Below, piece by piece: positions 1-13,371 of a DNA stretch of 13,371 bases. The stretch lies in assembly GCA_964640345.1 (NCBI GenBank), contig CAZXFU010000035.1:1-13371 (forward strand), given 5' to 3'. Position numbers and translations under genes: made by a program. The DNA is from an uncultured Eubacteriales bacterium (GTDB lineage: Bacteria > Bacillota > Clostridia > TANB77 > RGIG9151). The notes beneath the pieces are model-generated. The model was not told where the DNA came from, made no database searches, and was given only the letters and a program-made list of their open reading frames with translations. Within the stretch, counting starts at the first letter, position 1. Each line of letters opens with the position of its first letter.

Positions 1-1
1 A

Positions 2-676
2 TTGGAATTTAAAGGATTAAAAGCAGAAAATGCAAATATTCAAGAAAGTCCTTCTTCGTCAAGAATTCTTTACCAAGCTTCAAGCCAAGATACGATAAAA
101 TTACTTGAAAAAAATAACGAATGGTACAGAGTTTTATGTAATAACGAAATAGAAGGCTGGATGCACTACTCGAACATAAACTCTGGTATTGACCCAAGAG
201 CCGAAAAAATAGTAGAACTTGCCCATACAAAAATAGGGTGTAGATATGAGCATGCAAACCAAGGCCCTAACGTGTTTGACTGCTCAGGCTTAATAAAATG
301 GTTACTTAAGCAGGTATCATCCAGACCTAATAAAATAATTCTAACAAACGGTCCTCAATACCAAGTATTTGAACTTACATACGATATACCGCTTTCAGAC
401 GTAATGGCAAACATGAATAACTTAGACGCCGTGTTAAAACCGGGAGATGTATTTTATTTCCAATCTGCCAGTGCAAAGCAAATAAACAAAGCCTCTAGCC
501 ATGCAGCCTTATATGTAGGCGACAACTACATCATACATGCAAAAGGTGCTGCATACGGAGTTGTAAAAGAAAAAATATCTGCACATTACTTAAAAATCAC
601 ATGTGCAGTAAAAAGACCTTTTGAAAATGGGAATACATATGTATCAAAAGACAGAATTTTTGATAAAGATAACTAA
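2..676 (+). CDS. SH3b + NlpC/P60 family peptidoglycan hydrolase, 5'-truncated by the window edge
   Basis: An SH3b-like segment ([22 protein letters not shown]) is followed by the NlpC/P60 catalytic Cys motif ([11 protein letters not shown]) and the His motif ([14 protein letters not shown]). The ORF is open to the window start. Stop TAA at 674-676. Confidence 0.85.
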
Positions 677-1269
677 AGTTCACGCCTTCCCTCTAGGGCC
701 ATAGAAAGCGTAACTTCATCTGTATACTCCAAATCTCCTCCGACGGGAATACCATGAGCAATCCTGGTAACTTTAATTCCAATTGGCTTAATAAGCCTTG
801 AAATATACATAGCGGTAGCTTCTCCCTCAACGTTTAGATTTGTAGCCAAAATTACTTCTGAAACATTTTCATTCAATCTGCTAATTAGCTCTTTTATTCG
901 AATATCTTCCGGACCTATTCCATTTACAGGTGAAATTGCCCCCTGCAATACATGATATACGCCCTTAAACTCATGTGTTTTCTCCATAGCCATTATATCC
1001 TTAACATCAGACACAACACATATAACCGATGTATCCCTTTTAGGATTACTACATATCGGGCATAGCTCAGAATCCGTTAAATTCCCACAAACACTACAAA
1101 ATTTTATCTTTTCTTTAGCCGTAATTATCGCCTCAGAAAATTTTTTCGCATCTTCCGCAGTTTCATTTAAAATATAAAAAGCTAACCGGCAAGCGGTCTT
1201 ATGACCGATTCCCGGTAACTTTTCAAATTCTTCTATAAGATTTGTAATCGGTGCAGAATAACTTTCCAT
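673..1269 (-). CDS. recR: Recombination protein RecR
   Basis: HhH motif ([14 protein letters not shown]), C4 zinc finger ([16 protein letters not shown]) and a Toprim region. It sits in the conserved dnaX-ybaB-recR order. I prefer the ATG at 1269 (198 aa), preceded by GGAGGT. The track's start at 1281 is a TTG that lies inside that RBS. Confidence 0.95.
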
Positions 1270-1281
1270 TTTTACCTCCAA

Positions 1282-1605
1282 CTAAAACGGCATATTAGGC
1301 AAATTAAATTTCTTCATCTCATTTGCAGTAACTTCATCAACTTTATTTAACGCATCATTTACCGCAGTTAAAATCAAATCTTGAAGCATTTCAACATCAT
1401 CTAAAACCTCAGGATTAATTTTTATATTTGTAATTTTTTTCTTGCCTGTAGTGGTTACAACTACTGCACCACCGCCTGAAGTCCCTTCCATAACCTTTAA
1501 TTCAAGCTCCTCTTGTGTCTTTTGCATATCTGCTTGTAATTTCTGAGCCTGTTTTATTAATCCACTCATATTTCCGCCGAGGAAACCGTTAAATCCACCT
1601 TTCAT
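1282..1605 (-). CDS. ybaB: YbaB/EbfC family nucleoid-associated DNA-binding protein
   Basis: 107 aa. It has the typical N-terminus (MSGLIKQAQKLQADMQKTQEEL) and lies between dnaX and recR. RBS AAAGGAGGA precedes the ATG. Confidence 0.93.
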   Translation of the reverse strand: MKGGFNGFLGGNMSGLIKQAQKLQADMQKTQEELELKVMEGTSGGGAVVVTTTGKKKITNIKINPEVLDDVEMLQDLILTAVNDALNKVDEVTANEMKKFNLPNMPF

Positions 1606-1628
1606 AGTAAATCCTCCTTTATATTTTT

Positions 1629-3158
1629 CTACAATATATTAACATCTATTTCGGAATTTATCAAGGTATTTTCCGCATCATCGGATTTGATATCTGTTTT
1701 TCCTTCTACCAAACATTTTATTATCATATCTTTCTTGCAAATCTCCAAAACCGCCTTTTTAAGTGCATCCATATTTTCCGGTCTTTCTATAACATTTTTT
1801 CCAAATTCTTGTGGAAAACAAACCGTTAAAGTGCCATCTGTTATATTTGCTTTCGCAGAAACAAGAGTTGCATATAATGACATTTTCCCGGAGTTTTTTA
1901 AATAATTTATTACATCTTTCCAATCCCCCATGCTTTGACCAATTACGGGTGTATTTTTGGTAGGCTCCTCTTTCTTAATCGGTTCTTTAATAACATTCTC
2001 ATCGGCTTTTATCTGCTGATTAGCAGTCTCTTTAATACTCTCTACCACTTCTTTTTTTACAAAAACACGGTCTTTCTCTGACGACATAAGCTGAATTAAA
2101 GACGATTCAAGCAGTATAGCCGGAAAAGCCGCACCCTTAATATCTGCTTCAAGTTCGGATAAATATATTATAATATCACTAATCTTTTGATTATCTGCCA
2201 TATTTGAAATATTTTTAATATCCTCTAATAAAGTAAAATTCTTTAACAGCCCTATATTCTGAGTGTTTTTATAGACCAAAACATCTCTTGCCAAGGAAAT
2301 AATTTCCCATATAAAATATTTTATATCTTTTCCGGAATCAACAATTTCATTTACTAAGTTTATCATAGAAACCATATCTTTATTTAAAATTGCAGATAAC
2401 ACACCTGAAACGGTAGATGACTCGGCAATTCCAAGTAATTCTCTTACTAAGCTCTCAGTTATTTCCTCAGTACCTGAAGAAATAACACGATCTAATAAGC
2501 TAAGTCCGTCTCTTAACGCACCATCAGCCGCCTGTGCAAGTACCATAAGTGCCGGAAACTCTACTTTAACACCATTTTTCTCACATACTTTTTCCAATCT
2601 TTTTGCAATATTTTCTTTGGAAATTCTTTTAAACTCAAATCTTTGACATCTGGATAAAATAGTAACCGGTATTTTATGCGGTTCTGTAGTAGCTAAAATA
2701 AATATAACATTCTCCGGTGGTTCCTCAAGTGTTTTTAACAGTGCATTAAAAGCACTTGCAGAAAGCATATGTACTTCGTCTATTATATAAACCTTATATT
2801 TAGCCATTGTCGGTGCATAAATTACATTTTCACGAATAGCACGGATATCATCAACGCTGTTGTTAGATGCAGCATCTATTTCCATTACATCCGGAATAGA
2901 CGCATCTGTTATCCCTTTACATACTTCACATTCATTACATGGCTCGCCATTTACCGGCGATGTACAATTTACCGCCCTTGAGAAAATCTTCGCTGTTGTT
3001 GTTTTTCCGGTTCCACGACTTCCGCAAAAAAGGTACGCATGTCCGACTTGGTTATTTAATATCTGATATTTTAAAACTTTAATAATATGTTCCTGACCTA
3101 CCACATCATCAAAAGTTATAGGTCTAAACTTTCTGTAAAGTGCCATATACTGTGCCAT
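1629..3158 (-). CDS. dnaX: DNA polymerase III subunit tau (DnaX)
   Basis: Walker A (GSRGTGKTTTAK), Zn module (CNECEVCKGI), DEVHMLS and the SRCQRFEF sensor motif. I prefer the ATG at 3158 (509 aa), preceded by GGAGGG with 7-nt spacing. The track's start at 3176 adds 6 aa. Confidence 0.95.
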   Translation of the reverse strand: MAQYMALYRKFRPITFDDVVGQEHIIKVLKYQILNNQVGHAYLFCGSRGTGKTTTAKIFSRAVNCTSPVNGEPCNECEVCKGITDASIPDVMEIDAASNNSVDDIRAIRENVIYAPTMAKYKVYIIDEVHMLSASAFNALLKTLEEPPENVIFILATTEPHKIPVTILSRCQRFEFKRISKENIAKRLEKVCEKNGVKVEFPALMVLAQAADGALRDGLSLLDRVISSGTEEITESLVRELLGIAESSTVSGVLSAILNKDMVSMINLVNEIVDSGKDIKYFIWEIISLARDVLVYKNTQNIGLLKNFTLLEDIKNISNMADNQKISDIIIYLSELEADIKGAAFPAILLESSLIQLMSSEKDRVFVKKEVVESIKETANQQIKADENVIKEPIKKEEPTKNTPVIGQSMGDWKDVINYLKNSGKMSLYATLVSAKANITDGTLTVCFPQEFGKNVIERPENMDALKKAVLEICKKDMIIKCLVEGKTDIKSDDAENTLINSEIDVNIL

Positions 3159-3251
3159 ATTTTTTCCCTCCAACATTCAAAAGAAAAGAGCCATAAAAAC
3201 TTGCGAGAATTTTACAGTACACAATTTTTTACAGCCCCTTTTATTCATAAT

Positions 3252-4244
3252 TTAATTTATTACTCCAACATTTCCGTAAGTCGGCTCTGAAAAATCCTTG
3301 CTTTCAATTAACGCCACAAGTTCCGGATTAAACTGAGTATTTGCACATCGCTTAATCTCATTTATCGCATCCTTATGTGAAATAGCCTTTCTATACGGTC
3401 TATCCGAAGTCATCGCATCATACGCATCAGACAATGCAATTATCTGAGCCTCTAAAGACAATTCCCTACCTTTTAATCCAAGCGGATATCCTTTACCGTC
3501 ATATCTTTCATGATGATAATTTATAGCATCCATAGTCGCTTCAGACAAATCCAAGGTATTTAATATCCAACTTCCGATTGCAGGATGTTTCTTAACTTCT
3601 TCGTACTCTTCATTAGTAAGTTTAGAAGGCTTGCACAAAATATCGTCCGCAATGCCAATCTTACCAACATCATGTAACATTCCGGCAATACGAATCTCTT
3701 CGACCTTTTCTTCCGGTAATTTCATCCTCTTTGCAAGCTCGGCAGCATACTCCGAAACTCTCTGCGAATGACCTAAAGTATATTTATCTTTAGCCTCTAT
3801 AGCTGAAACTAGCGATGCAATTAAGTCTTTATTCGCATTACTTAATTCCATATTCTTAGAATGTAATTCCTGGACCTTATTTTCATTTTCCACAATAAGT
3901 TCCTGCATTATATCCGCCATAGTATTAAATGATTCTGCAATATAATATAAATCACTTGATTTTGAAAAAGTTAACCTTGTCGTTAAATCTCCCCGTTTAA
4001 TCTTTTGTGTCCAATCACTGATTTTCATATAAGATTGTGCCAGTCTATCCTGAATTCTTGCAAAAAGCGAATAAGTAATTATTATATCCAAAAAACCTAA
4101 AAGCAAAATCCCGCCAAATATAGCTAATTCTACATAAATAGGTAATGAAGACGCCGAATTAATTATAACCGCACTCAATGCAATCATTATTATAGTCGGA
4201 ACAGACAGCGAAAATAACAACCAGAACTTTAGCCTTTCGTTCAT
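3252..4244 (-). CDS. Membrane-anchored HAMP + HD-GYP domain protein (putative c-di-GMP phosphodiesterase)
   Basis: Two N-terminal TM helices, a HAMP-like linker (RGDLTTRLTF...IAESFNTMADIM), a coiled coil, then the HD motif (MLHDVGKIGI) and HHERYDGKGYP (HHExxDGxGYP). The start is set at the ATG at 4244 because the 39-codon upstream extension in the track overlaps the SRP RNA. The SD is weak. Confidence 0.85.
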   Translation of the reverse strand: MNERLKFWLLFSLSVPTIIMIALSAVIINSASSLPIYVELAIFGGILLLGFLDIIITYSLFARIQDRLAQSYMKISDWTQKIKRGDLTTRLTFSKSSDLYYIAESFNTMADIMQELIVENENKVQELHSKNMELSNANKDLIASLVSAIEAKDKYTLGHSQRVSEYAAELAKRMKLPEEKVEEIRIAGMLHDVGKIGIADDILCKPSKLTNEEYEEVKKHPAIGSWILNTLDLSEATMDAINYHHERYDGKGYPLGLKGRELSLEAQIIALSDAYDAMTSDRPYRKAISHKDAINEIKRCANTQFNPELVALIESKDFSEPTYGNVGVIN

Positions 4245-4292
4245 ACGTCGAATTTCTATTTTAATCAGCCCCTCATAAGTAATTAAAAATAT

Positions 4293-4566
4293 GTGCCATG
4301 CAGCCCGTTCTCGACAATCCCACTCAGGCAAAATAGAAATAGTTTCACTCGATCCAAGCACCCTTATATCACATAAAAAATGACACTTACCGCTGCTTCC
4401 TTCCGGACCTGACGGGGTTCATGGTTTTCTATCGAATAAGAACTTAAATTGTCAACATGATAACTATAGCAAATCGTTCCAAGCAAAACGCCTCAAACAG
4501 GCCGTAAGCCTTGCTATAGCGGATTTCAAGTACAGGAGACCGCTAATCCCCCACCTAGCATAACAC
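4293..4566 (-). ncRNA. ffs: Signal recognition particle RNA, large Bacillus-type (with Alu domain), about 270 nt
   Basis: The minus strand reads GTCAGGTCCGGAAGGAAGCAGC, the invariant domain IV motif. The 5' part (GGGGGATTAGCGGTCTCCTGTACTTGAAATCCGCTATAGCAAGGC) parallels the B. subtilis scRNA Alu domain as I recall it. It lies upstream of dnaX, as in other Firmicutes. The ends are approximate (about 10 nt either way). Confidence 0.85.
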
Positions 4567-4572
4567 ATACTT

Positions 4573-4601
4573 AGTATAATAAAATAAATTTTTATATGCA
4601 A
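4573..4601 (-). promoter_or_regulatory. Sigma-A type promoter for the SRP RNA
   Basis: Minus strand: TTGCAT (4601-4596), a 17-nt spacer, then TATACT (4578-4573). This puts the transcription start near 4566, at the predicted 5' end of the RNA. Confidence 0.55.
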
Positions 4602-4648
4602 TAGTTTTTTGATATTTTTATTAAACTCTTGTCACTAACCACACTTAA

Positions 4649-5209
4649 TTAAAAAATAAAATCTTTAATATATTCCCCAAACAAAAAAGCCACTAAAAAG
4701 CCGGTTTGTATAAACGGAGCAAAATGTACCAATGATTTTTTTATTATCTTTGATGCAACAATACTCATCAAGCAAGCTAAAAATAACATAACGCACATAT
4801 CAAAAGTACTTAAAACAAAAGACATCGTAGCGAATAATATTATATCTCCGCCACCTATTAAAAACCTTTCCTCGTCTTTGTTTATAAATAGCTGAAATAT
4901 GGTTTCAAGCAAAATAAACGGAATAACGAAAAATAGCAGGTTTATTCCAATTGTCTTTAACTCCGCTCCTTTTAAAAAAGCAAATATACTCGAAATACAA
5001 AGTACTGCCACATTAAGCGGAATAGAAATAAGCCCTGTCTTCCAATCTTCTATTGATATATATGACAGTATTGTAAGCATAAAAAATAACAATAATAAAG
5101 GGTACGAAAAACCCTTTATTATTGTTATTAAAACTATTTGTATTAAAGAAAATATAAAAGCTAAAACTATATCTTTTCTCATTTTATCTTTTCTGACTCC
5201 ATCCTGCAT
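4649..5209 (-). CDS. A24 family prepilin peptidase, short TadV/CpaA/FlaK-like form without a methyltransferase domain
   Basis: Polytopic membrane protein with the two catalytic Asp contexts (SIEDWKTGLI and IGGGDIILFA). It is the last gene of the pilin-like cluster. An alternative start is the ATG at 5182 (177 aa), 1 nt after the upstream gene's stop. Confidence 0.75.
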   Translation of the reverse strand: MQDGVRKDKMRKDIVLAFIFSLIQIVLITIIKGFSYPLLLLFFMLTILSYISIEDWKTGLISIPLNVAVLCISSIFAFLKGAELKTIGINLLFFVIPFILLETIFQLFINKDEERFLIGGGDIILFATMSFVLSTFDMCVMLFLACLMSIVASKIIKKSLVHFAPFIQTGFLVAFLFGEYIKDFIF

Positions 5210-6206
5210 CTTCAGTTTGTCTTTGTATCTTACCTGTATTTAACGCACACATAGGAACAGAAAGACTTCCGTCTCCGGATAAACTAAATAAACTCTTTAC
5301 ACCGGCACCTTCATCGTTTGTGTTCTTACCGTCAAATATAGTAGGTAGTGCAAAGTCTTTTACTACAATAACGTAATGAGGATATGTTTCCATCTCTCTT
5401 ACCAACTTAGAATAATCTTCTTCGCCACTGGCATTTAAGTTAATCCAAAAATTAGTATTTGGATCATATGCATTCTTTTTATCTTTATCCATACCATCAT
5501 ACTTACAATTTACTATATCACTTATTTGTTTTTCTACTTCTTTATAAACCTCTTTCATACTGTTTCTATTACTACTCTTAACAAAACTAATTGCTAATTC
5601 TTTTTCAATACCATTTTCTGTATCATAATCTCCATTTCCATAAGCAATTATATTAAAAAACTTTTCGTCAGCATCCGTTCTATATGGTTCTATAAAAAAC
5701 ATCATTATCTTAAAATCAGCTGTATCACTTATTTTTTCTCCATCTTTCCTTCTTACTACCGCATCTTCTAATAAAGCCATCGTTGTATTTACTACCTTTT
5801 GATGATCAAGTTTTATAAAATTGTTTATTTCCCCGGTTTTTACAATAGTATCGTTGGTTTTATCCGAGTCCTCATTTCTGTTTATAAGATAACCTAGAGC
5901 TAATTGAAGGTAAATATCATAAGTCGGTTGAGTATTGCCATTGCCAATATTACCGTCTAATATTTTCTTTTGAGCACCTGTTACACCATCTCTGTTACTC
6001 TTGAGTAGGTGTATAACAGAACCGGAAGACGCTGTTTGGACAGCATCCCTTAAAGAATTATATCCGTTTTCAATAACCTTTGAATTAACAATATTGATAG
6101 CCACAAAAATCAATACAAGTAATAGAGTCAGACCATAAAGAATAACTCCAAGTCCACTACCATTATTACTTGATAGTTCTATCTTATTATTCTTCTTATG
6201 GTGCAT
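5184..6206 (-). CDS. Membrane-anchored hypothetical protein with a TadG-like N-terminus (340 aa)
   Basis: Its single N-terminal hydrophobic helix and following segment (GSGLGVILYGLTLLLVLIFVAINIVNSKVIENGYNSLRDAVQTASSG) resemble the Tad/TadG N-terminal pattern. The rest is N/D/K-rich with no motif I recognise. Its start overlaps the upstream gene's stop by 11 nt, suggesting translational coupling. That it is a gene is likely; the function call is weak. Confidence 0.6.
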   Translation of the reverse strand: MHHKKNNKIELSSNNGSGLGVILYGLTLLLVLIFVAINIVNSKVIENGYNSLRDAVQTASSGSVIHLLKSNRDGVTGAQKKILDGNIGNGNTQPTYDIYLQLALGYLINRNEDSDKTNDTIVKTGEINNFIKLDHQKVVNTTMALLEDAVVRRKDGEKISDTADFKIMMFFIEPYRTDADEKFFNIIAYGNGDYDTENGIEKELAISFVKSSNRNSMKEVYKEVEKQISDIVNCKYDGMDKDKKNAYDPNTNFWINLNASGEEDYSKLVREMETYPHYVIVVKDFALPTIFDGKNTNDEGAGVKSLFSLSGDGSLSVPMCALNTGKIQRQTEDAGWSQKR

Positions 6207-6714
6207 AATTCCTTATAATCTCCTCTCTATAAGAACTGTACTTTAAACCACCGGTATACTCTTCATTTTTCGAAAAGATGCCAAAAGACGTAACACTTCC
6301 AAGTATTGACTGCTGAACAGACTCAACATATATGCCTATTATATCCGCCTTATTTACATAAGGCAAAGACTTTAAGCTATACGGACCTTGGATAGGACCA
6401 ACTGTTCCTGTAGCCTCATTAAACTTCTTTATATAATACTGAATCGTACAATCAGCAACACCATTTGCATCTTTTTCCAAAATCCCGGATAACTTATTAC
6501 GAATATAGTCTTCATGATTTGTAGTTATTTCTCCATAAGTACTAGCCATAACGGTAGCTTCTTTTACTACTTGATTCATATACTGTTGAACAGAAAAATG
6601 ATATATAGTTGCGACCATATAAATGAGGACATACAAAAGAGGTAGCATTACAACAATATATGCTACAATCGTATCCAAGCCACCTTTTTTTAATTTTAAT
6701 CCTTTTGTATTCAT
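6196..6714 (-). CDS. TadE-like minor pilin / pseudopilin-like protein (172 aa)
   Basis: The N-terminus (MNTKGLKLKKGG-LDTIVAYIVVMLPLLYVLIYMV) carries the same basic-GG leader plus hydrophobic helix as the three upstream mini-pilins, and resembles the TadE N-terminal pattern (xVMLPLLxxL). Strong RBS AAGGAGG. Its start is 13 nt after the upstream stop. Confidence 0.6.
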   Translation of the reverse strand: MNTKGLKLKKGGLDTIVAYIVVMLPLLYVLIYMVATIYHFSVQQYMNQVVKEATVMASTYGEITTNHEDYIRNKLSGILEKDANGVADCTIQYYIKKFNEATGTVGPIQGPYSLKSLPYVNKADIIGIYVESVQQSILGSVTSFGIFSKNEEYTGGLKYSSYREEIIRNYAP

Positions 6715-6727
6715 TAATCCGGCCTCC

Positions 6728-6901
6728 TTATCGTGGACCTATATTAGTCTGCTGTTTAACTAAAGTGTTCGTCGTCTTTTCCAATAACTCGTCTCCCTGA
6801 TTAGACATAGGTATAACAGTACTAAGAATAAGTGCAACTACTATCCCTACTATTATAACTGTTGCTATTATCGTTTCCATACCGCCTCTTAACCGTCTCA
6901 T
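6728..6901 (-). CDS. Mini-pilin-like protein 3 (57 aa), not in the ORF track
   Basis: Hand translation: MRRLRGGMETIIATVIIVGIVVALILSTVIPMSNQGDELLEKTTNTLVKQQTNIGPR*. RBS GGGAGAG precedes the ATG. It is a paralogue of the 56-aa and 74-aa genes. Confidence 0.65.
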   Translation of the reverse strand: MRRLRGGMETIIATVIIVGIVVALILSTVIPMSNQGDELLEKTTNTLVKQQTNIGPR

Positions 6902-6924
6902 ACACTCACTCTCCCTAAACTCCT

Positions 6925-7095
6925 TTAACTTATCTCTTTGCCCAATCCATTAAGCCTACCTTCGCCCTTGACTCCAATTTCTTTAGTATCTTTAGTCATA
7001 GGTAATATTACCGCAATAATAAGAGCTATAACAAGTCCTACCATAATTATCGTAGCTATAATTCCTTCTATTCCACCTTTTTGTTTTCTTTTCAT
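6925..7095 (-). CDS. Mini-pilin-like protein 2 (56 aa), not in the ORF track
   Basis: Hand translation: MKRKQKGGIEGIIATIIMVGLVIALIIAVILPMTKDTKEIGVKGEGRLNGLGKEIS*. RBS GAGGGAG precedes the ATG. The hydrophobic core is near-identical to that of the 74-aa protein. Confidence 0.7.
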   Translation of the reverse strand: MKRKQKGGIEGIIATIIMVGLVIALIIAVILPMTKDTKEIGVKGEGRLNGLGKEIS

Positions 7096-7138
7096 ATATA
7101 TCTACTCCCTCAAACGAGATTTTTTTACTTTTTATTAT

Positions 7139-7174
7139 AAAACCGGCAATAATGGCTTCATTAATGCCGGTTTT
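7139..7174 (-). terminator. Intra-operon hairpin (candidate partial intrinsic terminator or attenuator) after the first pilin gene
   Basis: 36-nt near-perfect palindrome AAAACCGGCAaTAATGgcttCATTAaTGCCGGTTTT: a 16-bp stem with one mismatch and a 4-nt loop. It starts 10 nt after the pilin-1 stop. On the minus strand it is followed by UUUUAUAAUAAAAAG. Confidence 0.5.
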
Positions 7175-7184
7175 AATAATAATT

Positions 7185-7409
7185 TTATTCTTGTTTATCA
7201 GAAGAAGCACTAGCAGGGCTCATAATGGAGCTAATAGCCTGGCTAGCTTTTCCCATTCCTGATTCTGCACTACTACCGGACCCATTTGCTTTCTTTACTA
7301 TGGGAAGAACTACTGCGACAATTAGTGCAATAACTAAGCCAACAATTATCATAAGTGTAACGATGTCAGCTATTCCACCTTTTTTCAACATATTTTTAAT
7401 CCTCTTCAT
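7185..7409 (-). CDS. Mini-pilin-like protein 1 (74 aa), probable major subunit
   Basis: MKRIKNMLKKGG-IADIVTLMIIVGLVIALIVAVVLP, followed by a Ser/Ala/Gly-rich tail. Strong RBS AAAGGAGGA with 5-nt spacing. It is the first gene of the cluster and is followed by the hairpin. Confidence 0.75.
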   Translation of the reverse strand: MKRIKNMLKKGGIADIVTLMIIVGLVIALIVAVVLPIVKKANGSGSSAESGMGKASQAISSIMSPASASSDKQE

Positions 7410-7549
7410 AAAGCATCCTCCTTTTTAATTTAATATGCTTATTTTAAAAAGCACATCATCATACTCTATACACTTATTATAATCGGCATAATTCCCGCTT
7501 TAGTTTAGTGTTTTTTCTTTCTTTCTCAAAAAAATGTAAAATTAGAGCA
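7410..7549 (-). promoter_or_regulatory. Intergenic region upstream of the pilin cluster, with a candidate promoter
   Basis: 140-nt AT-rich gap. On the minus strand there is a perfect TATAAT at 7481-7476, but only a poor -35 (ACTAAA). I see no terminator hairpin after the dCMP deaminase stop, so read-through from upstream cannot be excluded. Confidence 0.3.
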
Positions 7550-8038
7550 TTATTCCTTTATTACTATTTCTTCAAATCCTTCTAAATGTCTGTACTTTAC
7601 TCCACATACATCCATAAGTTTCTTCGAGGCAAAAAAAGCATCTTGTTTTGCGTATTTATCGCTTAAATATATAACTTCTTTAATACCGGATTGTACAATA
7701 AGCTTTGCACACTCATTACAAGGGAATAAATCAACATATATCTTTGCATTTTCCAAATCTCTCTTATTTCCTCTGTAATTCATAATCGCATTCATTTCCG
7801 CATGGCAAACATAAAAATACTTCGTCTCAATAGCGTTCCCTTCTCTTGCCCAAGGGAAATTATCATCATCAAAGCCATTTGGTGCCCCATTATATCCAAT
7901 CGATAAAATTCTGTTGTCCTGGCTTACGATACACGCTCCAACCTGAGTAGATGGGTCTTTGCTCCTCATCGACGACAACTTAGCAATTGCCATAAAATAA
8001 TTATCCCACGTTAAATATTCTTCTCTTTTCTTAGTCAT
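7550..8038 (-). CDS. comEB: dCMP deaminase (ComEB/DCTD family)
   Basis: Zn-binding motifs CHAEMNAI and PCNECAKLI. N-terminus YLTWDNYFMAIAKLSSMRSKDPSTQVGACIV is typical of dCMP deaminases. 162 aa. Confidence 0.9.
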   Translation of the reverse strand: MTKKREEYLTWDNYFMAIAKLSSMRSKDPSTQVGACIVSQDNRILSIGYNGAPNGFDDDNFPWAREGNAIETKYFYVCHAEMNAIMNYRGNKRDLENAKIYVDLFPCNECAKLIVQSGIKEVIYLSDKYAKQDAFFASKKLMDVCGVKYRHLEGFEEIVIKE

Positions 8039-8063
8039 AATCTATTACTCCTCAGTCAAAAAT

Positions 8064-8798
8064 TTAATACATCTCCGTAACGCAATCTTCTCCTACATAT
8101 GTTCCTATATTCTCGCCTTCACATAATCTTATAACTGAGTTCTTTTCTTCAAAATCAAAAACATACAAAGGCATCTTATATTCGCTTGCTAACATAAACG
8201 CAGACTGGTCTGCAACTTGAAGTCTCTTTTCAATAACTTCTTCATATGTAGCCGTTTTATATCTCTTAGCATTAGGATCGTCTTTAGGATTAGCAGTATA
8301 TATACCATTAACTCCTTCTTTTGCCATCAATACAACATCCGCCCTAATCTCAAGAGCTTTCTGAATAGAAGTATAATCCGTTGTAACATAAGGATTTCCC
8401 GTTCCGCCACCAAAAATAACAATTCTTCCCCTGTCTAAATACTTAAGTGCCTTAAGTCTTATATATGGCTCAGCAACAGTATTCATATGGATAGACGTCA
8501 TAACCCTTACATTCTCTATTCCCTTTGCTGTTAGTGCTCCTCTTAACATCAAGCTATTCATAATAGTAGCTAACATCCCTATATTATCCGCTTCAGCTCT
8601 TTCAAAATTCCAGTCATCCGCAACTCTTCCCCTAAAAATGTTTCCGCCGCCAATAACGATTGCAACCTCAATACCCGCATTGGCTGCCGTAATAATTTCA
8701 TTCGTAATATGGTCCAAAGCCCCTTTTGTATAGCCATGTCTTTCATCTTTTGATAAAGCTCCGCCGCTCAGTTTTAATAAGACTCTTTTATACTTCAT
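8064..8798 (-). CDS. pyrH: UMP kinase-like amino-acid-kinase family protein (divergent PyrH paralogue)
   Basis: YKRVLLKLSGGAL, VIGGGNIFRG, GMLATIMNS and GGGTGNPYVTTD match the PyrH signature. Several positions usually conserved in PyrH differ, as I recall the consensus: KLSGEAL becomes KLSGGAL, VDGVY becomes VNGIY, ADP becomes ANP. Confidence 0.8.
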   Translation of the reverse strand: MKYKRVLLKLSGGALSKDERHGYTKGALDHITNEIITAANAGIEVAIVIGGGNIFRGRVADDWNFERAEADNIGMLATIMNSLMLRGALTAKGIENVRVMTSIHMNTVAEPYIRLKALKYLDRGRIVIFGGGTGNPYVTTDYTSIQKALEIRADVVLMAKEGVNGIYTANPKDDPNAKRYKTATYEEVIEKRLQVADQSAFMLASEYKMPLYVFDFEEKNSVIRLCEGENIGTYVGEDCVTEMY

Positions 8799-8821
8799 AA
8801 TTACACACTCCTTTTATACAT

Positions 8822-9448
8822 TTACTTTGTTCCGTAAATTCTGTCTCCGGCATCTCCAAGACCCGGCACAATATATCCTTTTTCATTTAAGTGACTGTCT
8901 ATACTTGTACAATAAATTTGAACATCAGGATGTTCTTTTTTTATCTTTTCAAGTCCTTCCGGAACTGCAATTAGTGCTAAGAATTTAATTTTCTTTACCC
9001 CAATGTTCTTTAAACTTTGTATTGCATCGCAGGCACTCCCGCCCGTCGCAATCATAGGATCAAGGATTATAACAGTTCTGTTCTCAATGCCGTGAGGCAC
9101 CTTAAAATAGTATTGAGTAGGTTCTAATGTGTCTTCATTCCTAAATAATCCGATATGACCTACTTTTGCGTTAGGAATAATATTAAGAATTCCTTCAACC
9201 ATGCTCATTCCTGCTCTTAAAATAGGTAAAAACGCATAATTGTCTTCATCTAATTTCTGAGCCTTCATCTTTGCAATCGGTGTTTCAATTTCCGTATCAT
9301 ACAAAGGTGCATCTTTTGTAGCTTCGTAGCAAAGCATTGTGGCAAGTTCTGCTGCAATTTCCCTAAACTCTTTTGTTCCTGAATTTTTGTCTCTTAAAAT
9401 TGCAAGTTTGTGTTTTACTAATGGATGTGTTAAAACAATCGGCTCCAT
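8822..9448 (-). CDS. upp: Uracil phosphoribosyltransferase
   Basis: PRPP-binding DPMIATGGS and the C-terminal YIVPGLGDAGDRIYGTK. I prefer the ATG at 9448 (208 aa), preceded by AAGGAGAG with 7-nt spacing. The track's 16-codon extension runs through a leader hairpin. Confidence 0.95.
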   Translation of the reverse strand: MEPIVLTHPLVKHKLAILRDKNSGTKEFREIAAELATMLCYEATKDAPLYDTEIETPIAKMKAQKLDEDNYAFLPILRAGMSMVEGILNIIPNAKVGHIGLFRNEDTLEPTQYYFKVPHGIENRTVIILDPMIATGGSACDAIQSLKNIGVKKIKFLALIAVPEGLEKIKKEHPDVQIYCTSIDSHLNEKGYIVPGLGDAGDRIYGTK

Positions 9449-9480
9449 TTCACTTCTCTCCTTTTCAGCACTAAATTTGG

Positions 9481-9512
9481 TACAAAAAAATTTCAAAGTA
9501 CTGCTTACTTTG
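9481..9512 (-). promoter_or_regulatory. Terminator-like hairpin plus U-tract in the upp 5' leader (candidate attenuator)
   Basis: Minus strand: CAAAGTA-agcag-TACTTTG, followed by AAATTTTTTTGT. It lies between the candidate promoter and the upp RBS. Confidence 0.35.
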
Positions 9513-9527
9513 TCCCATCTTTAAAAT

Positions 9528-9555
9528 ATTATCACAAAATTACTCATAAATACAA
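9528..9555 (-). promoter_or_regulatory. Candidate sigma-A promoter for the upp operon
   Basis: Minus strand: TTGTAT (9555-9550), a 16-nt spacer, then TGT-GATAAT (extended -10; hexamer 9533-9528). Confidence 0.4.
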
Positions 9556-9627
9556 TATTTATATGTATATTTTATATTTTTTTGCTAAAAATAGGTACAA
9601 AAAGTGAAATGTCTAACGAGGTGGATT

Positions 9628-10059
9628 ATGAAAAAAGTACTTATGTTATTAATATCTGTCAGTATTCTTATAATGTCATGCTTTGCCGATTCGAATACAA
9701 GAAACAATGAGTCGGAACTGCTGGCAAGAATCGTACATGCAGAGTCAAAAGGCGAGCCGTATTTAGGACAAGTATCTGTTGCTGCCGTAATTCTAAACAG
9801 AATAGACAGTCCGGATTTTCCTAACACTCTTGCCGGCGTAATATATCAACCCGGAGCGTTCGAACCGGTCTCAAACGGGACTATAAATCAAGACGTTCCA
9901 AAAGATGCCAGTGCAAGGCGTGCAGCCCAAGAAGCGTTAAACGGATATGATCCGACAGGCGGATGCCTTTATTTCTATAACCCTGCAACTGCCAAAAGCA
10001 AATGGATTTGGGGTAAACAAGTAGTAAAAACAATCGGCAAACACAACTTTGCAAAATAA
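9628..10059 (+). CDS. sleB: SleB-family spore cortex-lytic hydrolase, catalytic domain only, with a signal peptide
   Basis: AESKGEPYLGQVSVAAVILNRIDSPDFPNTLAGVIYQPGAF...LYFYNPATAKSKWIWGKQVVKTIGKHNF closely parallels the SleB/CwlJ catalytic domain. It lies immediately upstream of ypeB. The start is set at the ATG at 9628, preceded by GAGGTGG. The N-terminal signal is possibly lipoprotein-like (LIMSC). Confidence 0.85.
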   Translation: MKKVLMLLISVSILIMSCFADSNTRNNESELLARIVHAESKGEPYLGQVSVAAVILNRIDSPDFPNTLAGVIYQPGAFEPVSNGTINQDVPKDASARRAAQEALNGYDPTGGCLYFYNPATAKSKWIWGKQVVKTIGKHNFAK

Positions 10060-10102
10060 AATTTTATCTGTAATACAAATATGAAACGGAGGAAAAACAA
10101 AT

Positions 10103-11485
10103 ATGAATTTTGCAGACAAATTAAAAGACTGGCGAAATCGTCTAAGAGACAGACATATGTTTACCATAGTGATTTCTTCTTTTTTAGTAATAATAGCACT
10201 TCTATGTTACATTTTTAAAATAAGAAACGATAATAAGCAAGCACTTGAGAACAGATATAACCAAGCATTTTACGAAATGTCTTCATATATAGAAAACATA
10301 GACACTCTTCTCGCAAAGTCTTTAGTAAGTAAAGACCCAACTCATGGTGCAAGGACAATGAGTGAAGTATGGCGTCAGGCAAATTTAGCAAAAACAAATC
10401 TCTCTCAACTCCCTATCGAGCAAAATCTAATAGCACAAACATCGAAATTTTTATCTCAAACAAGCGATTTTTCACGTTCACTAACCCTCCAAACAATTGA
10501 CCAAAAGCCGGTAACAGAGGAACAGCTTGGGCAAATAAAATCACTTTCTGACTATGCAAACAAACTTCAAACCAGTATATTAGAGCTTTCCTCTCAATTA
10601 AGTGAAGGACGTCTTTCTTGGAACGAGCTTACTAACAAGGGTTCTAAGACATTTGCAAAACTCGGAAACAGCAACGAGTCAAACACTTTTCAGGAAATGT
10701 CTGATAATTTCCAAGACTATCCGGGTTTAATATACGACGGTCCTTTTTCCGATCACATAACAGAATTAACTCCCAAAGGGATAACAGGCGAAAATATTGA
10801 CCGGGAAAAGGCGAAAAAAATAGCAACCGACTTTATAGGTGCCGACAGAATAAAAGAAATAACTTCAATTAGTGAATCATTTAATTCTAAAATACCTTGT
10901 TACAGCTTATCAATGAAATTAAAAAACGAAGAAGAAGCTAATATGGACATCTCCCAAAAAGGTGGTCATGTGATATGGTTTTTATATAATAAGGATGTAA
11001 AAGACAAAAAACTAACAATAGACGATGCAAAGGCACGTGCTCTTGAATTTCTAAATTCACGTGGATTAACAAGCATGAAATCAACCTATTATATAGAAGA
11101 AAATAATATAGCAACATTAAACTTTGCATACACTCAAAACGACGTAACAATTTATCCCGACTTAATAAAAATTGCAATCGCAATGGACAACGGAGATATA
11201 ACAGGTTTTGAATCCGCCGGTTATCTTTTCTCTCACGAACAAAGAGTAATAAAGACACCAAAGATCACAAAGGACGAGGCACTTTCCAATATAAACAAAG
11301 ACTTAACCCCTGAATATACCGGACTTGCAATAATCCCAACAGATGTAAAAACCGAAGTCTTAGTTCACGAATTCAAAGGCAAAGTAGACAATAGAGACTT
11401 TATTGTATATATAAACGCAGAAACAGGAAAAGAAGAGGACATTTTAATAATAATAAATACACCTAACGGTATATTAACAATATAA
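10103..11485 (+). CDS. ypeB: Germination protein YpeB (PepSY domains)
   Basis: N-terminal TM helix. Blocks NRYNQAFYEMSSYIENID, EVWRQANLAKTNLSQLP and ISQKGGHVIWFLYNKDVKDKKLTIDDAKARALEFL parallel B. subtilis YpeB. It follows sleB. Confidence 0.92.
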   Translation: MNFADKLKDWRNRLRDRHMFTIVISSFLVIIALLCYIFKIRNDNKQALENRYNQAFYEMSSYIENIDTLLAKSLVSKDPTHGARTMSEVWRQANLAKTNLSQLPIEQNLIAQTSKFLSQTSDFSRSLTLQTIDQKPVTEEQLGQIKSLSDYANKLQTSILELSSQLSEGRLSWNELTNKGSKTFAKLGNSNESNTFQEMSDNFQDYPGLIYDGPFSDHITELTPKGITGENIDREKAKKIATDFIGADRIKEITSISESFNSKIPCYSLSMKLKNEEEANMDISQKGGHVIWFLYNKDVKDKKLTIDDAKARALEFLNSRGLTSMKSTYYIEENNIATLNFAYTQNDVTIYPDLIKIAIAMDNGDITGFESAGYLFSHEQRVIKTPKITKDEALSNINKDLTPEYTGLAIIPTDVKTEVLVHEFKGKVDNRDFIVYINAETGKEEDILIIINTPNGILTI

Positions 11486-11495
11486 GGAGGCAAAC

Positions 11496-11942
11496 ATGAA
11501 ACAACCATATACAAAACCCGAATATTCAAAATATGTAGACAAAAAATCGCCTAACAGCCCATTATGGAAAAACATTTTATGGGCATTTGCCATCGGCGGA
11601 ATAATATGTATAATAGGTCAATTTATAACAAACTTCTTTCTCTCAAGAGGATTGCCAAAAGAAACAGTATCCGCAATAACTTCAATACTCCTTATACTCG
11701 GTGCAATAATTTTAACCGCTCTTGGCTGGTATGACAGGATAGGAAAACGTGCCGGTGCCGGCTCGGTCGTTCCCATTACAGGATTTGCAAATTCAATTGC
11801 CTCTCCTGCAATAGAATTTAAAACAGAAGGCTTAATCATGGGACTTGGTGCAAAAATGTTCACGGTAGCAGGTCCTGTACTGGTTTACGGTATATCATCA
11901 TCAATAATTGTAGGCTTCTTGTACTTTATATTTAATCTTTAA
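11496..11942 (+). CDS. spoVAC: Stage V sporulation protein AC (DPA channel component)
   Basis: Membrane protein containing GAGSVVPITGFANSIASPAIEFKTEGLIMGLGAKMF, typical of SpoVAC. Its start is 10 nt after the ypeB stop, with RBS AGGAGG. Confidence 0.93.
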   Translation: MKQPYTKPEYSKYVDKKSPNSPLWKNILWAFAIGGIICIIGQFITNFFLSRGLPKETVSAITSILLILGAIILTALGWYDRIGKRAGAGSVVPITGFANSIASPAIEFKTEGLIMGLGAKMFTVAGPVLVYGISSSIIVGFLYFIFNL

Positions 11943-11998
11943 TTTACGTCCTTGGAGAGGGACAATAAAAAATACTACAAACAAACAAGGAGAGTAAA

Positions 11999-13003
11999 AT
12001 GAAACGTTTAGGGAAAAAAACAGTTATTTTGCCGTCACAACCTCATATAATTGAGACCTCATCAATTGTAGGAAAAAAAGAAGGCGAAGGTCCACTTGCG
12101 AAATATTTTGATTTTATATTAAGCGACGAATACTGGGGAGAAAAAAGTTTTGAAAAAACAGAAATAAAAATTTTAAAAGAAAATCTTAATAAAGTCCTTC
12201 AAAAAGCAAATAAAACCCCGGAAGATATAAACTATGTATTAGCAGGCGACCTGCTAAATCAATGTATTTCCTCATCATATGCAGTAAGAGAAAGTGAAAT
12301 TCCGTTTATCGGCTTGTACGGTGCATGTTCCACAATGGTAGAATCTATGGCACTCGGCTCGATGATAGTTGACGGAGGATTTGCAGACAATGTACTTGCA
12401 ATAACATCCAGTCATTTCTGCTCGGCAGAACGTCAGTTTAGATTTCCTCTCGAACAAGGAACTCAGCGCCCGCCAACCTCCCAATGGACAGTAACAGGCT
12501 CCGGTGCAGCGATAATATCTACCGACCAAAAAGGTCCTAAAATAACGCATGTAACAATCGGCTCGGTCGTAGACATGGGAATAAAAGACGCCAACAACAT
12601 GGGAGCCGCAATGGCACCGGCTGCGGCAGATACAATATATTCACATCTAAAAGAAACCGGACGTGCTCCGAACTATTATGACCTTATAGTAACTGGCGAC
12701 CTAGGATATATAGGCGGAGAAATCTTAAAAGACTTGCTGCAAAAAAATGATATAAATATAAAAAACAGATATAACGACTGCGGTATTTTAATGTTTGACA
12801 AGCAAAAGCAAGACACTCATTCGGGCGGAAGCGGTTGCGGCTGCTGTGGAAGTGTGTTCGCAGGATTTTTATATGAAAAATTGCAAAAAAAAGAGCTAAA
12901 TAAAATTCTGCTTGTCGCAACAGGAGCATTAATGAGCACAACTGCAGTACAACAAGGCGAAGCAATAGAAGGTATTGCCCATGCCATCGCAATAGAAAAT
13001 TAG
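11999..13003 (+). CDS. spoVAD: Stage V sporulation protein AD
   Basis: 334 aa, thiolase-like. GLYGACSTMVESMALG and the C-terminal SGGSGCGCCGSV motif are typical of SpoVAD. It sits between spoVAC and spoVAE. Confidence 0.93.
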   Translation: MKRLGKKTVILPSQPHIIETSSIVGKKEGEGPLAKYFDFILSDEYWGEKSFEKTEIKILKENLNKVLQKANKTPEDINYVLAGDLLNQCISSSYAVRESEIPFIGLYGACSTMVESMALGSMIVDGGFADNVLAITSSHFCSAERQFRFPLEQGTQRPPTSQWTVTGSGAAIISTDQKGPKITHVTIGSVVDMGIKDANNMGAAMAPAAADTIYSHLKETGRAPNYYDLIVTGDLGYIGGEILKDLLQKNDINIKNRYNDCGILMFDKQKQDTHSGGSGCGCCGSVFAGFLYEKLQKKELNKILLVATGALMSTTAVQQGEAIEGIAHAIAIEN

Positions 13004-13014
13004 GAGGTAAAAAT

Positions 13015-13371
13015 ATGTCATATTTAACAGCGTTCATAACAGGCGGTATAATATGCTCAATAGGTCAAATTCTAATAGATAAAACAAAACTCACACCCGC
13101 AAGAATATTAGTGCTGTTTATAGTAACCGGTGTAATTCTTACAGCAATAGGAATATATGAACCAATCGTAAAATGGGGCGGAGCAGGTGCAACAGTTCCA
13201 TTAACCGGATTTGGATATTCACTCGTTAACGGAGTAATAAAGGAAGTAAACAATTATGGCTTTTTAGGTATATTTACCGGCGGAATAAAAGCAACCGCCG
13301 CAGGTGTTGGAGCCGCAATATTTTTTAGTCTAATTGCAGGTCTAATTTTCAGAGCTCACGCTAAGACATAA
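13015..13371 (+). CDS. spoVAE: Stage V sporulation protein AE (SpoVAEb type)
   Basis: Membrane protein paralogous to SpoVAC (GGAGATVPLTGFGYSLVNGV). RBS AGGAGG. The stop TAA is at the window end. Confidence 0.9.
   Translation: MSYLTAFITGGIICSIGQILIDKTKLTPARILVLFIVTGVILTAIGIYEPIVKWGGAGATVPLTGFGYSLVNGVIKEVNNYGFLGIFTGGIKATAAGVGAAIFFSLIAGLIFRAHAKT

Follow-up and report, generated by a model that had tools for sequence, protein, structure and literature searches.

A probable split Tad-type pilin and prepilin peptidase operon in uncultured gut and rumen Clostridia

A cassette of six genes on a contig of an uncultured Eubacteriales bacterium (GenBank assembly GCA_964640345.1, contig CAZXFU010000035.1, positions 1 to 13,371; this whole stretch of 13,371 nucleotides (nt) is called the window in the following) quite probably encodes the subunits and the processing enzyme of a highly divergent, split pilus of the Tad type (type IVc) in uncultured Clostridia of gut and rumen. 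In agreement with the original prediction made from this DNA, six co-oriented open reading frames (ORFs) are present on the minus strand within 4649-7409 and encode three mini-pilins, two larger pilin-like proteins of 172 and 340 amino acids (aa) and a short A24 prepilin peptidase, as judged by their coordinates, a shared leader and the PF01478 match of the peptidase (Table 1). The prediction was also right that the window is devoid of a motor: an ORF and Pfam survey of it revealed neither a T2SSE ATPase nor a platform gene. Three explanations had been offered, namely a split locus served in trans, a filament powered by the motor of another type IV filament system, and a peptidase-processed membrane protein system that is not a conventional pilus. 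Our results favour the first, as the cassette adjoins a Tad-type motor block in one relative and such a block stands alone in another. The cassette is best regarded as a very divergent, usually split Tad-type variant whose prepilin leader is non-canonical, rather than as a new machine that lacks a motor, and the cognate motor is probably encoded elsewhere in this genome.

Results

A Tad-type motor block adjoins the cassette in a distant relative

Loci other than the window are designated by L numbers. In L018, a locus of 14.2 kb which carries P0073, a member of the most distant clade, motor genes and cassette form one co-oriented, closely spaced row. The order cpaB-tadZ-tadA-tadB-tadC is the canonical Tad order, which marks the cassette as the probable pilin and peptidase half of such a system. 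Among structures in the PDB, the ATPase of this row matched Caulobacter CpaF best (1.5e-24), twelve orders of magnitude ahead of the further matches to archaeal GspE (5e-12), FlaI (1e-7), VirB11 (1.7e-7) and GspE/PilT (about 1e-4). All six window proteins found the corresponding L018 gene as their best match. Identities amounted to 44% between the 340-aa protein and its 319-aa counterpart (8.5e-78), 37% between the 172-aa protein and its 193-aa orthologue (E 2.6e-40), 50% between the A24 peptidases (1e-54) and 28-54% over local alignments between the mini-pilins.

When metagenome contigs were searched with the ATPase of L018, three more contigs emerged, L023, L024 and L025, at 81-91% identity (L024/L023 ATPase: 81%). 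Together, L024 and L023 show the order ispG-coaD-...-cpaB-tadZ-tadA-tadB-tadC, directly followed by dnaE (DNA_pol3_alpha, 5e-106), and cassette components were found nowhere on these two contigs. A tblastn search over the loci with the L018 motor proteins gave matches only in L018 and L023-L025. As the two halves are joined in L018 and stand apart in L023/L024 as well as in the window and other loci, splitting occurs within the family. The ispG and coaD genes beside the L013 cassette are 81% and 71% identical to the L024 pair, and in these related organisms the pilin and motor halves lie on opposite sides of one and the same housekeeping pair.

Upstream of its stand-alone motor block, L024 also contains three weak matches of the conjugation type, a VirD4-like C-terminal fragment (T4SS-DNA_transf, E 3e-4), a 108-aa T4SS_pilin-like protein (E 4e-4) and a 283-aa TrbL/VirB6-like protein (E 2e-3). 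They are interleaved with ispG and coaD and may represent either a decayed conjugative element or noise.

The cassette could also have lost its cognate Tad motor and be assembled by the ATPase and platform of a Com pseudopilus or a type IVa system. None of the split cassettes has a motor close by: T2SSE genes were not detected within the fetched flanks (up to 10 kb), and a Walker-A pattern search over the first 207 kb of loci was likewise negative for a T2SSE ATPase. Furthermore, the surface protein and transglycosylase genes of L019 are preceded by a 403-aa gene whose N_methyl signature (type IVa/Com pilin) is weak, so that other type IV filament systems may coexist with the cassette, and prepilin peptidases and some components are exchangeable between type IV filament systems (PMC6668835). 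The cassette, however, brings its own very divergent peptidase and a leader unlike that of the G|FTLIE pilins, which argues for a private, co-evolved machinery rather than a foreign motor, and a cognate motor is known in the family, both adjoining the cassette and alone. Assembly of Flp-size pilins by a Com or PilB motor is not known to us, and we consider a foreign motor unlikely. Equally unlikely is the wider idea that the motor was lost in this lineage, leaving a sigmaD-driven operon, co-regulated with flagella, whose products use a non-cognate motor or form a motor-independent surface complex.

The cassette encodes five prepilin-like proteins and a private A24 peptidase

The five non-peptidase proteins share the architecture of class III (prepilin-type) signal peptides. 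All 49 N-termini collected from 11 loci consist of Met and a basic leader, followed by [IVLMF][EDAG]xI[IV] and about 22 hydrophobic residues. The leader ends in [KR]GG in the mini-pilins and the 172-aa family and in G[SD]G in the 340-aa family, and a Pro is mostly located near +24 in the mini-pilins and at +13 in the 172-aa family. Based on the conserved junction, cleavage is predicted after Gly-Gly, or after Gly-Ser-Gly in the 340-aa protein, and the five proteins would be the substrates of the adjacent A24 peptidase.

The peptidase provided the sole match of the six proteins to a curated family (Peptidase_A24, PF01478; E 3.4e-9, 37.5 bits at a cut-off of 26.5), and all members of its family carry PF01478. 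Both catalytic Asp residues are retained: D55 (DWKTG) is invariant, and GGGD122 is nearly so, being kept in every aligned peptidase except one without that region. With 177-186 aa the protein is confined to the A24 domain, without the methyltransferase domain of PilD or a DiS_P_DiS N-terminal domain. Since most homologues begin with MKKD or MRKD, the true start is probably the ATG at 5182 (MRKDIV..., 177 aa), which lies 1 nt past the stop of the 340-aa gene; the longest ORF overlaps that gene by 26 nt, and its 9-residue N-terminal extension is probably not translated. The clade is isolated, as the score fell from 192 bits to 42 bits at the next A24 protein in a profile search of 5.8 billion sequences. 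The A24 proteins at 42 bits were discarded as an outgroup; one of them is a stand-alone gene beside hisS and uninformative. A search of the PDB with the profile of the peptidase family resulted in nothing meaningful, not even FlaK.

GG-ending leaders and three small genes in tandem are also features of double-glycine-leader peptides of the bacteriocin or pheromone type, or of holin-like peptides, in which case the A24 match would be incidental; an AgrB gene is even found 1.7 kb downstream of the cassette in L002. Nevertheless, the leaders of the small proteins are strongly basic, comprise 7-12 residues and are followed directly by a 22-residue hydrophobic helix and not by an amphipathic bacteriocin core, and neither a C39 peptidase nor an ABC exporter is adjacent to the cassettes. 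The 172-aa and 340-aa proteins bear the same leader, and the peptidase is the last gene of the cassette in every case. In addition, a comparison of the six proteins with PADLOC resulted in no match and with PHROGs in nothing significant. Such peptides are therefore an extremely improbable explanation.

A variable mini-pilin is followed by a conserved hairpin

With prepilins of 56-74 aa, leaders of 7-12 aa, about 25 hydrophobic residues and tails of 23-37 aa, the mini-pilins have the architecture of Flp-size pilins. Mini-pilin 1 consists of the leader MKRIKNMLKKGG, followed by IADIVTLMIIVGLVIALIVAVVLPIV and a Ser-rich tail. Across nine species its first 25 mature residues are 83% identical and its tail, which varies between 29 and 47 residues, only 25%. 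Mini-pilin 2 (MKRKQKGG, junction, IEGIIATIIMVGLVIALIIAVILPM...) and mini-pilin 3 (MRRLRGG, junction, METIIATVIIVGIVVALILSTVIPM...) have shorter and better-conserved tails: between species, the N-terminal part and the tail are 75% and 39% identical in the former and 59% and 46% in the latter, whose tail contains the conserved motif GDELL..TTN.L..QQ.NIGP.

The 89-nt spacer after the gene of mini-pilin 1 folds into a terminator- or attenuator-like hairpin with a dG of -27.1 kcal/mol (z -5.8), and none of 200 shuffled sequences folded as well. L004, L008 and L009 keep the hairpin, L008 with a compensatory change from A-U to U-A, and a different hairpin occupies the corresponding position in L010. 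The hypervariable tail together with the conserved terminator hairpin behind the gene indicates that mini-pilin 1 is likely the major pilin; a variable first pilin in front of attenuated minor genes would be the usual pattern of an abundant, exposed major subunit. A 72-aa ORF that extends across the hairpin and the start of pilin gene 2 is apparently conserved in L009; it owes this to the conserved hairpin and to its overlap with the gene of mini-pilin 2 and was rejected as a gene.

The larger pilin-like proteins and a candidate tip adhesin

The 172-aa protein (MNTKGLKLKKGG, junction, LDTIVAYIVVMLPLLYVL..., followed by a soluble domain) has the same leader motif as the mini-pilins, and the alignment of its family revealed an invariant KxGGxDTIxAYIVV..PL. 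Its likeness to TadE is limited to position, size and the Pro about 13 residues past the junction; neither TadE nor any other Pfam or NCBIfam model matched it, and a profile of 10 sequences retrieved no relevant PDB entry. In the 340-aa protein, a leader ending in ...NNGSG is followed by the junction, LGVILYGLTLLLVLIFVAINIV and a conserved alpha/beta domain. The core motifs YDxYLQLALGY, NNFIKLDH, FIEP and YxIVVKDFALPT of this protein are invariant or nearly so across the family. It has no match in Pfam, including Tad (PF13400), or in NCBIfam. An AF2 model based on 75 sequences (pLDDT 67, pTM 0.65) places a long N-terminal helix at residues 18-62 in front of the alpha/beta domain and thus suggests the general 'lollipop' shape of pilins. 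Profile searches of the PDB with the 340-aa, 172-aa and peptidase families gave no meaningful match, and the one to the designed repeat 8g8i was dismissed as spurious.

The locus L013 has five mini-pilin genes compared to three in the window, and its orthologue of the 340-aa protein (P0141) is extended to 667 aa by four C-terminal Listeria-Bacteroides (Flg_new) repeats (2.8e-40). These repeats place the C-terminus of the 340-aa protein outside the cell, as in modular pilins, and together with the model they make the protein a probable tip or adhesin candidate.

A large and conserved globular domain without a pilin-fold match would also suit a complex that is not a filament at all, i.e. a peptidase-matured membrane or surface complex that works without an extension ATPase and resembles the sugar-binding proteins with class III signal peptides of the archaeal bindosome. 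The cassette is indeed self-contained and mobile as a unit through at least six contexts. In L018, however, it stands in one co-oriented row with a CpaF-like ATPase and its partners, and a variable small subunit, a hairpin and conserved minor subunits in this order correspond to the typical layout of a pilus operon. Moreover, the bindosome presumably has an ATPase of its own, BasE, if the naming in NCBIfam is followed, and BasE is among the NCBIfam matches of the L018 proteins, which also counts against a complex without a filament. We regard this explanation as distinctly unlikely, below that of a foreign motor.

Split cassettes share a sigmaD-type promoter element

The promoter element TAAA-N15/16-GCCGATW occurs once in the window, at 0.04 expected matches. 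It was found once in each of the 15 other loci with sequence upstream of a split cassette (L001-L006, L008-L012, L019-L021 and L030), always 33-119 nt before the first pilin ATG, with a 16-nt spacer and an upstream A-tract; the surrounding sequence and the upstream genes differ among these loci. The element is absent from the 15 remaining loci, and in L018, where the pilin genes are located behind tadC, only a non-significant site with two mismatches was present before cpaB. The element of the window fits both the SigD consensus of Bacillus, TAAA-N15-GCCGATAT (PMC5200910), and the mapped fliC promoter of C. difficile, TAAA-N17-CCGATAA (PMC3865298). The split pilin operon would thus be transcribed by a factor of the sigma28 family, together with late flagellar genes. 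A generic scan for sigma70 promoters and terminators was uninformative (21 promoter-like sites at 18.7 expected), and Rfam in E-value mode revealed no riboswitch in the 5' leader. Each of the six genes is preceded by an AGGAGG-like ribosome-binding site, and the gene of the 172-aa protein runs 11 nt into that of the 340-aa protein.

The cassette is rare and occupies different chromosomal contexts

The family of the 340-aa protein comprises 75 clusters at 90% identity, all of them unnamed, and 18 representatives in a profile search of 1.84 billion representative proteins. A scan of 185,579 GTDB species representatives with two peptide patterns yielded seven loci, a number which is a lower bound; all seven belong to metagenome-assembled genomes (MAGs) of uncultured Clostridia or 'Eubacteriales' from the gut or rumen of human, chicken, deer and goat. 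The six-part cassette far exceeds what chance would produce. It is conserved in about 20 other contigs at 36-100% identity, and the unit is composed of 3-5 mini-pilins, a protein of about 170-190 aa, a protein of about 300-370 aa (667 aa once) and the A24 peptidase. Intact copies occupy at least six genomic contexts in at least seven species (Table 1), and the cassette seems to move between these contexts as a unit. Its position at ffs-dnaX, for which the original prediction had proposed a comparison of synteny, is shared by some relatives, and at least six unrelated contexts were observed overall.

Directly upstream of the L019 cassette are the genes of a 2450-aa surface protein (SLH x5, InlB-type repeats, LRR, PKD) and, in divergent orientation, of an SLT lytic transglycosylase.

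No motor was seen nearby and the organisms are known only from fragmentary MAGs, so the split cassette might be regarded as a decaying remnant after loss of the motor. All six ORFs are nevertheless intact in every sampled species with invariant core motifs, and promoter and attenuator are conserved across contexts. The integrity of the genes, the promoter and the compensatory change in the hairpin let the split cassette look functional, and decay is a very improbable account of it.

A YfhO-family gene accompanies many cassettes

At least seven distinct loci combine the cassette with a gene for a YfhO-family membrane protein (PF09586, GT-C fold). Three arrangements occur: the gene directly follows the peptidase, directly precedes the first pilin or comes one gene further on. 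The window cassette has no such neighbour. Enzymes of the YfhO family are glycosyltransferases of teichoic acids, and certain type IV pilins receive their glycans from a GT-C enzyme whose gene is next to that of the pilin. By analogy, a role of YfhO as pilin-glycosylation partner is a reasonable hypothesis. The membrane proteins downstream of the L029 cassette cannot be called glycosyltransferases, as they have no Pfam match. In L004, a Phd/YefM-YoeB toxin-antitoxin pair is inserted between the gene of a YfhO-associated 545-aa membrane protein and rplM; the pair is absent in L021.

Neighbouring genes in the window

The neighbours of the cassette are those named by the original prediction: Pfam assigned UPRTase, AA_kinase and dCMP deaminase to the upstream genes and HD/HD_5 (with the sequence HDxGK...GYP), DnaX, YbaB and RecR to the downstream ones, and the signal recognition particle (SRP) RNA gene ffs was confirmed by RF01854. 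A terminator-like structure was not found between the stop of the peptidase gene and ffs, which follows 85 nt downstream on the same strand (4563-4649), so read-through from the pilin operon into ffs is possible. A sigmaA-like promoter, TTGCAT-N17-TATACT, directly precedes ffs. The GC content of the cassette (0.30-0.35) is only slightly lower than that of the flanks (0.33-0.38), and this small gap gives no clear island signal.

The gene after ffs encodes a membrane-anchored protein of the HD-GYP type (HD_5/HDOD), probably a cyclic di-GMP (c-di-GMP) phosphodiesterase, and an HD-domain gene (HDOD/HD_5/HD) is found at the equivalent place downstream of the cassette in L005/L006 and L020. Cyclic di-GMP frequently controls pili and flagella.

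The window organism is a spore former, as the plus strand carries a spore germination and maturation cluster of Hydrolase_2 (SleB/CwlJ-like), YpeB and SpoVAC-SpoVAD-SpoVAEb. In its other contexts, the cassette shows no linkage to this cluster. The link to sporulation or the spore surface raised earlier found no support and is rejected, because the cassette occurs in contexts without spore genes and its promoter is of the sigmaD type and not of a sporulation-sigma type.

Table 1. Features of the window and of related loci, with the genomic contexts of the cassette
Sequence	Feature	Coordinates	Strand	Remarks
Window	sigmaD/sigma28 (FliA)-type promoter	7507-7481	minus	cTAAAc-N15-tGCCGATT, 71 nt before first pilin ATG
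Window	Mini-pilin 1	7409-7185	minus	74 aa, probable major subunit
Window	Terminator/attenuator-like hairpin	7132-7182	minus	AAAACCGGCA...TGCCGGTTTT and U-rich tail, between pilin genes 1 and 2
Window	Mini-pilin 2	7095-6925	minus	56 aa
Window	Mini-pilin 3	6901-6728	minus	57 aa
Window	172-aa pilin-like protein	6714-6196	minus	TadE/TadF position
Window	340-aa pilin-like protein	6206-5184	minus	TadG/tip position
Window	Short A24 prepilin peptidase	5209-4649	minus	TadV/CpaA-like; 186 aa as longest ORF
Window	dCMP deaminase gene	7550-8038		upstream flank of cassette
Window	SRP RNA gene ffs	4296-4563		RF01854, 133 bits; downstream flank
Window	HD-GYP-type protein	3252-4361	minus	after ffs
Window	Spore germination/maturation cluster	9604-13371	plus
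Window	72-aa ORF (rejected)	6992-7210	minus	apparent counterpart at L009:8982-9173
L018	Gene 1, CpaB/RcpC-like			SAF 3.6e-5; TIGR03177 pilus_cpaB 8.6e-10 (38 bits, cut-off 71), sub-threshold
L018	Gene 2, MinD/ParA-like, TadZ position			AAA_31 6e-5, MinD 1.5e-7, sub-threshold
L018	Gene 3, T2SSE ATPase			PF00437 2.6e-20; best NCBIfam match is a TadA-family model
L018	Genes 4-5, two polytopic membrane proteins			TadB/TadC position
L018	Following genes			three mini-pilins, 193-aa protein, 319-aa protein, A24 peptidase
L018	End of row			Cu_amine_oxidN1 protein, YfhO
L013	Orthologue of 340-aa protein (P0141)	1620-3623
L013	ispG and coaD	5630-7169		beside cassette
L024	ispG and coaD	695-2245
L024	VirD4-like C-terminal fragment	33-374		weak
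L024	T4SS_pilin-like protein	2641-2967		weak
L024	TrbL/VirB6-like protein	3017-3868		weak
L019	2450-aa surface protein	293-7645
L019	SLT lytic transglycosylase	7672-8424
L004	Phd/YefM-YoeB pair	15889-16406
L004	YfhO	11558-14113
L008	YfhO	9982-12528
L021	YfhO	11525-14065
L030	YfhO	2911-5457
L007	YfhO	2279-4774
L002	YfhO	6303-8786
L018	YfhO	10208-12811
Window, L001, L005/6, L011	Context			dCMP deaminase / cassette / ffs-HD-dnaX
L019/20	Context			giant SLH protein and SLT / cassette / ffs-HD
L004, L008, L009, L021/22	Context			PFOR / cassette, then YfhO / rplM-rpsI; L030 has the same downstream side
L007	Context			cassette, then YfhO, nothing else visible
L002/3/12	Context			PFOR / YfhO before cassette / rplM-rpsI
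L013	Context			cassette before NAGPA-ispG-coaD
L017, L026, L029	Context			other places

Discussion

Comparison with known filament systems

Common to Tad/Flp systems (type IVc; Aggregatibacter flp-tadV-rcpCAB-tadZABCDEFG, Caulobacter pilA-cpaA-F) and the cassette are several small pilins (50-75 aa), a pair of larger pseudopilin-like proteins and a short A24 peptidase that lacks a methyltransferase domain, and the relative L018 also shares the order cpaB-tadZ-tadA-two membrane proteins with an ATPase closest to CpaF. In contrast to these systems, the leader of the pilins ends in [KR]GG, with [IVLM][ED]xI[IV] behind the junction, and is not of the Flp type G/XXXXEY, because the acidic residue is located at +2/+3. 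Matches to Flp_Fap, TadE and Tad are missing here, and T2SSF is barely detectable in L018. The pilin and peptidase genes come after the motor (L018) instead of before it, and most members keep them at a separate locus with its own promoter.

The best-described parallel for the split layout is, by analogy, the eppA-epdABC operon of Methanococcus maripaludis, whose ATPase and platform genes are encoded elsewhere (PMC3875500). There, a dedicated peptidase is co-transcribed with pilin-like genes and the ATPase and two platform paralogues are distant (PMC3875500, PMC4371748). The Epd pili differ in being archaeal, in the much larger peptidase EppA (PMC4371748), in substrates that need Gln at +1 (KG|Q) and in a major pilin outside the operon, and sequence similarity to the window proteins was not detected.

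For the promoter, the TAD operon of Bdellovibrio, which is under FliA control (PMC5430801), offers a precedent: Flp-type pilin genes follow a flagellar sigma-28 promoter, and TAAA-N16-GCCGATW predicts the same here. The Bdellovibrio locus, however, is a canonical contiguous locus of a diderm with recognisable Flp pilins and its regulation is experimental, compared to a prediction from sequence in our case. Type IVa minor-pilin operons and the PilB/PilC proteins of Streptococcus sanguinis resemble the cassette in that the genes of minor or priming pilins are separate from those of the motor. Modular pilins, a concept described in PMC8179133, likewise combine a large pilin with a globular or adhesin module, which is reminiscent of the four added repeats in L013. 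These systems nevertheless have N_methyl leaders (G|FTLIE), a PilD with methyltransferase domain and no homology to the window proteins.

Weighing the Tad-type assignment

Several observations speak against a split Tad-type pilus. None of the mini-pilins matched Flp_Fap in Pfam at E<=1, and Glu-Tyr at +5/+6, as in the Flp motif G/XXXXEY, is missing in every collected mini-pilin N-terminus. The five non-peptidase proteins as a whole had no Flp, TadE or Tad match in Pfam and no pilus model in NCBIfam at the same threshold. Of the labels TadE-like and TadG-like given to the two larger proteins, the pilin-like leader and the position hold, and the profile matches do not. For the model of the 340-aa protein, which is of moderate confidence only, Foldseek found no neighbour in the PDB. 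Within L018, T2SSF reached an E of 0.2 for one protein of the putative platform pair and nothing for the other, and the mutual paralogy of the two is weak (hhalign probability 12%). This contig is the only one in which motor and cassette were found together. It belongs to the most distant clade, its three larger proteins being 37-50% identical to those of the window, and a motor in trans is deduced from relatives rather than seen in the genome of the window organism. Multi-locus Tad systems exist but are very rare (Denise et al., PMC6668835). Regarding the promoter, the spacer is one base longer than in the consensus of B. subtilis, and none of the fetched loci contains sigD/fliA or flagellar genes.

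Set against these points, the row of motor genes in L018, the stand-alone block in L023/L024 and the shared leader and peptidase still favour a Tad-type system of which the window holds the pilin half. An ordinary tad locus, which the original prediction had named as the outcome that would make the cassette unremarkable, is approached in so far as a relative has the contiguous motor set, but routine Flp, TadE or TadG profile matches are lacking.

Proposed mechanism

Based on these results, we propose the following model. RNA polymerase holoenzyme with a sigmaD/FliA-type factor would start transcription at the promoter element (7507-7481), and the hairpin would attenuate read-through into the five downstream genes, so that mini-pilin 1 is made in excess. 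The five prepilins would insert into the membrane with their basic leader in the cytoplasm, and the dedicated A24 aspartyl peptidase would remove the leader after Gly-Gly, or after Gly-Ser-Gly in the 340-aa protein. A cognate motor composed of CpaB, TadZ, a CpaF-like ATPase and TadB-TadC-like proteins, whose genes adjoin the cassette in L018 and would be located elsewhere in the window lineage, may then extrude the mature subunits into a filament. Mini-pilin 1 would make up the bulk of this filament and mini-pilins 2 and 3 as well as the 172-aa and 340-aa proteins would act as minor or priming pilins, with the globular domain of the 340-aa protein at the tip as a probable adhesin.

Significance

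The present analysis adds the sigmaD-type promoter, the hypervariable tail of mini-pilin 1 with the hairpin behind it, the attachment of YfhO and the adhesin-type repeats of the L013 orthologue to what had been noticed before. Gut commensals and pathogens use Tad pili for colonisation. As pilins, minor pilins and platform proteins of the family all escape their hidden Markov models (HMMs), routine annotation does not reveal this lineage, and surveys of type IV filaments in the gut microbiome that rely on HMMs probably undercount them. The combination of a non-canonical leader and a private, divergent A24 peptidase is useful for questions of peptidase specificity, and the recurrent YfhO (GT-C) neighbour hints at pilin glycosylation. 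The findings overturn nothing in the current understanding and extend the known diversity of Tad-type machines. They provide a natural example of a Tad system whose motor and pilin genes form two separate blocks, both mobile around the chromosome, and predict that the expression of pilus subunits may be coupled to the flagellar sigma factor in Clostridia.

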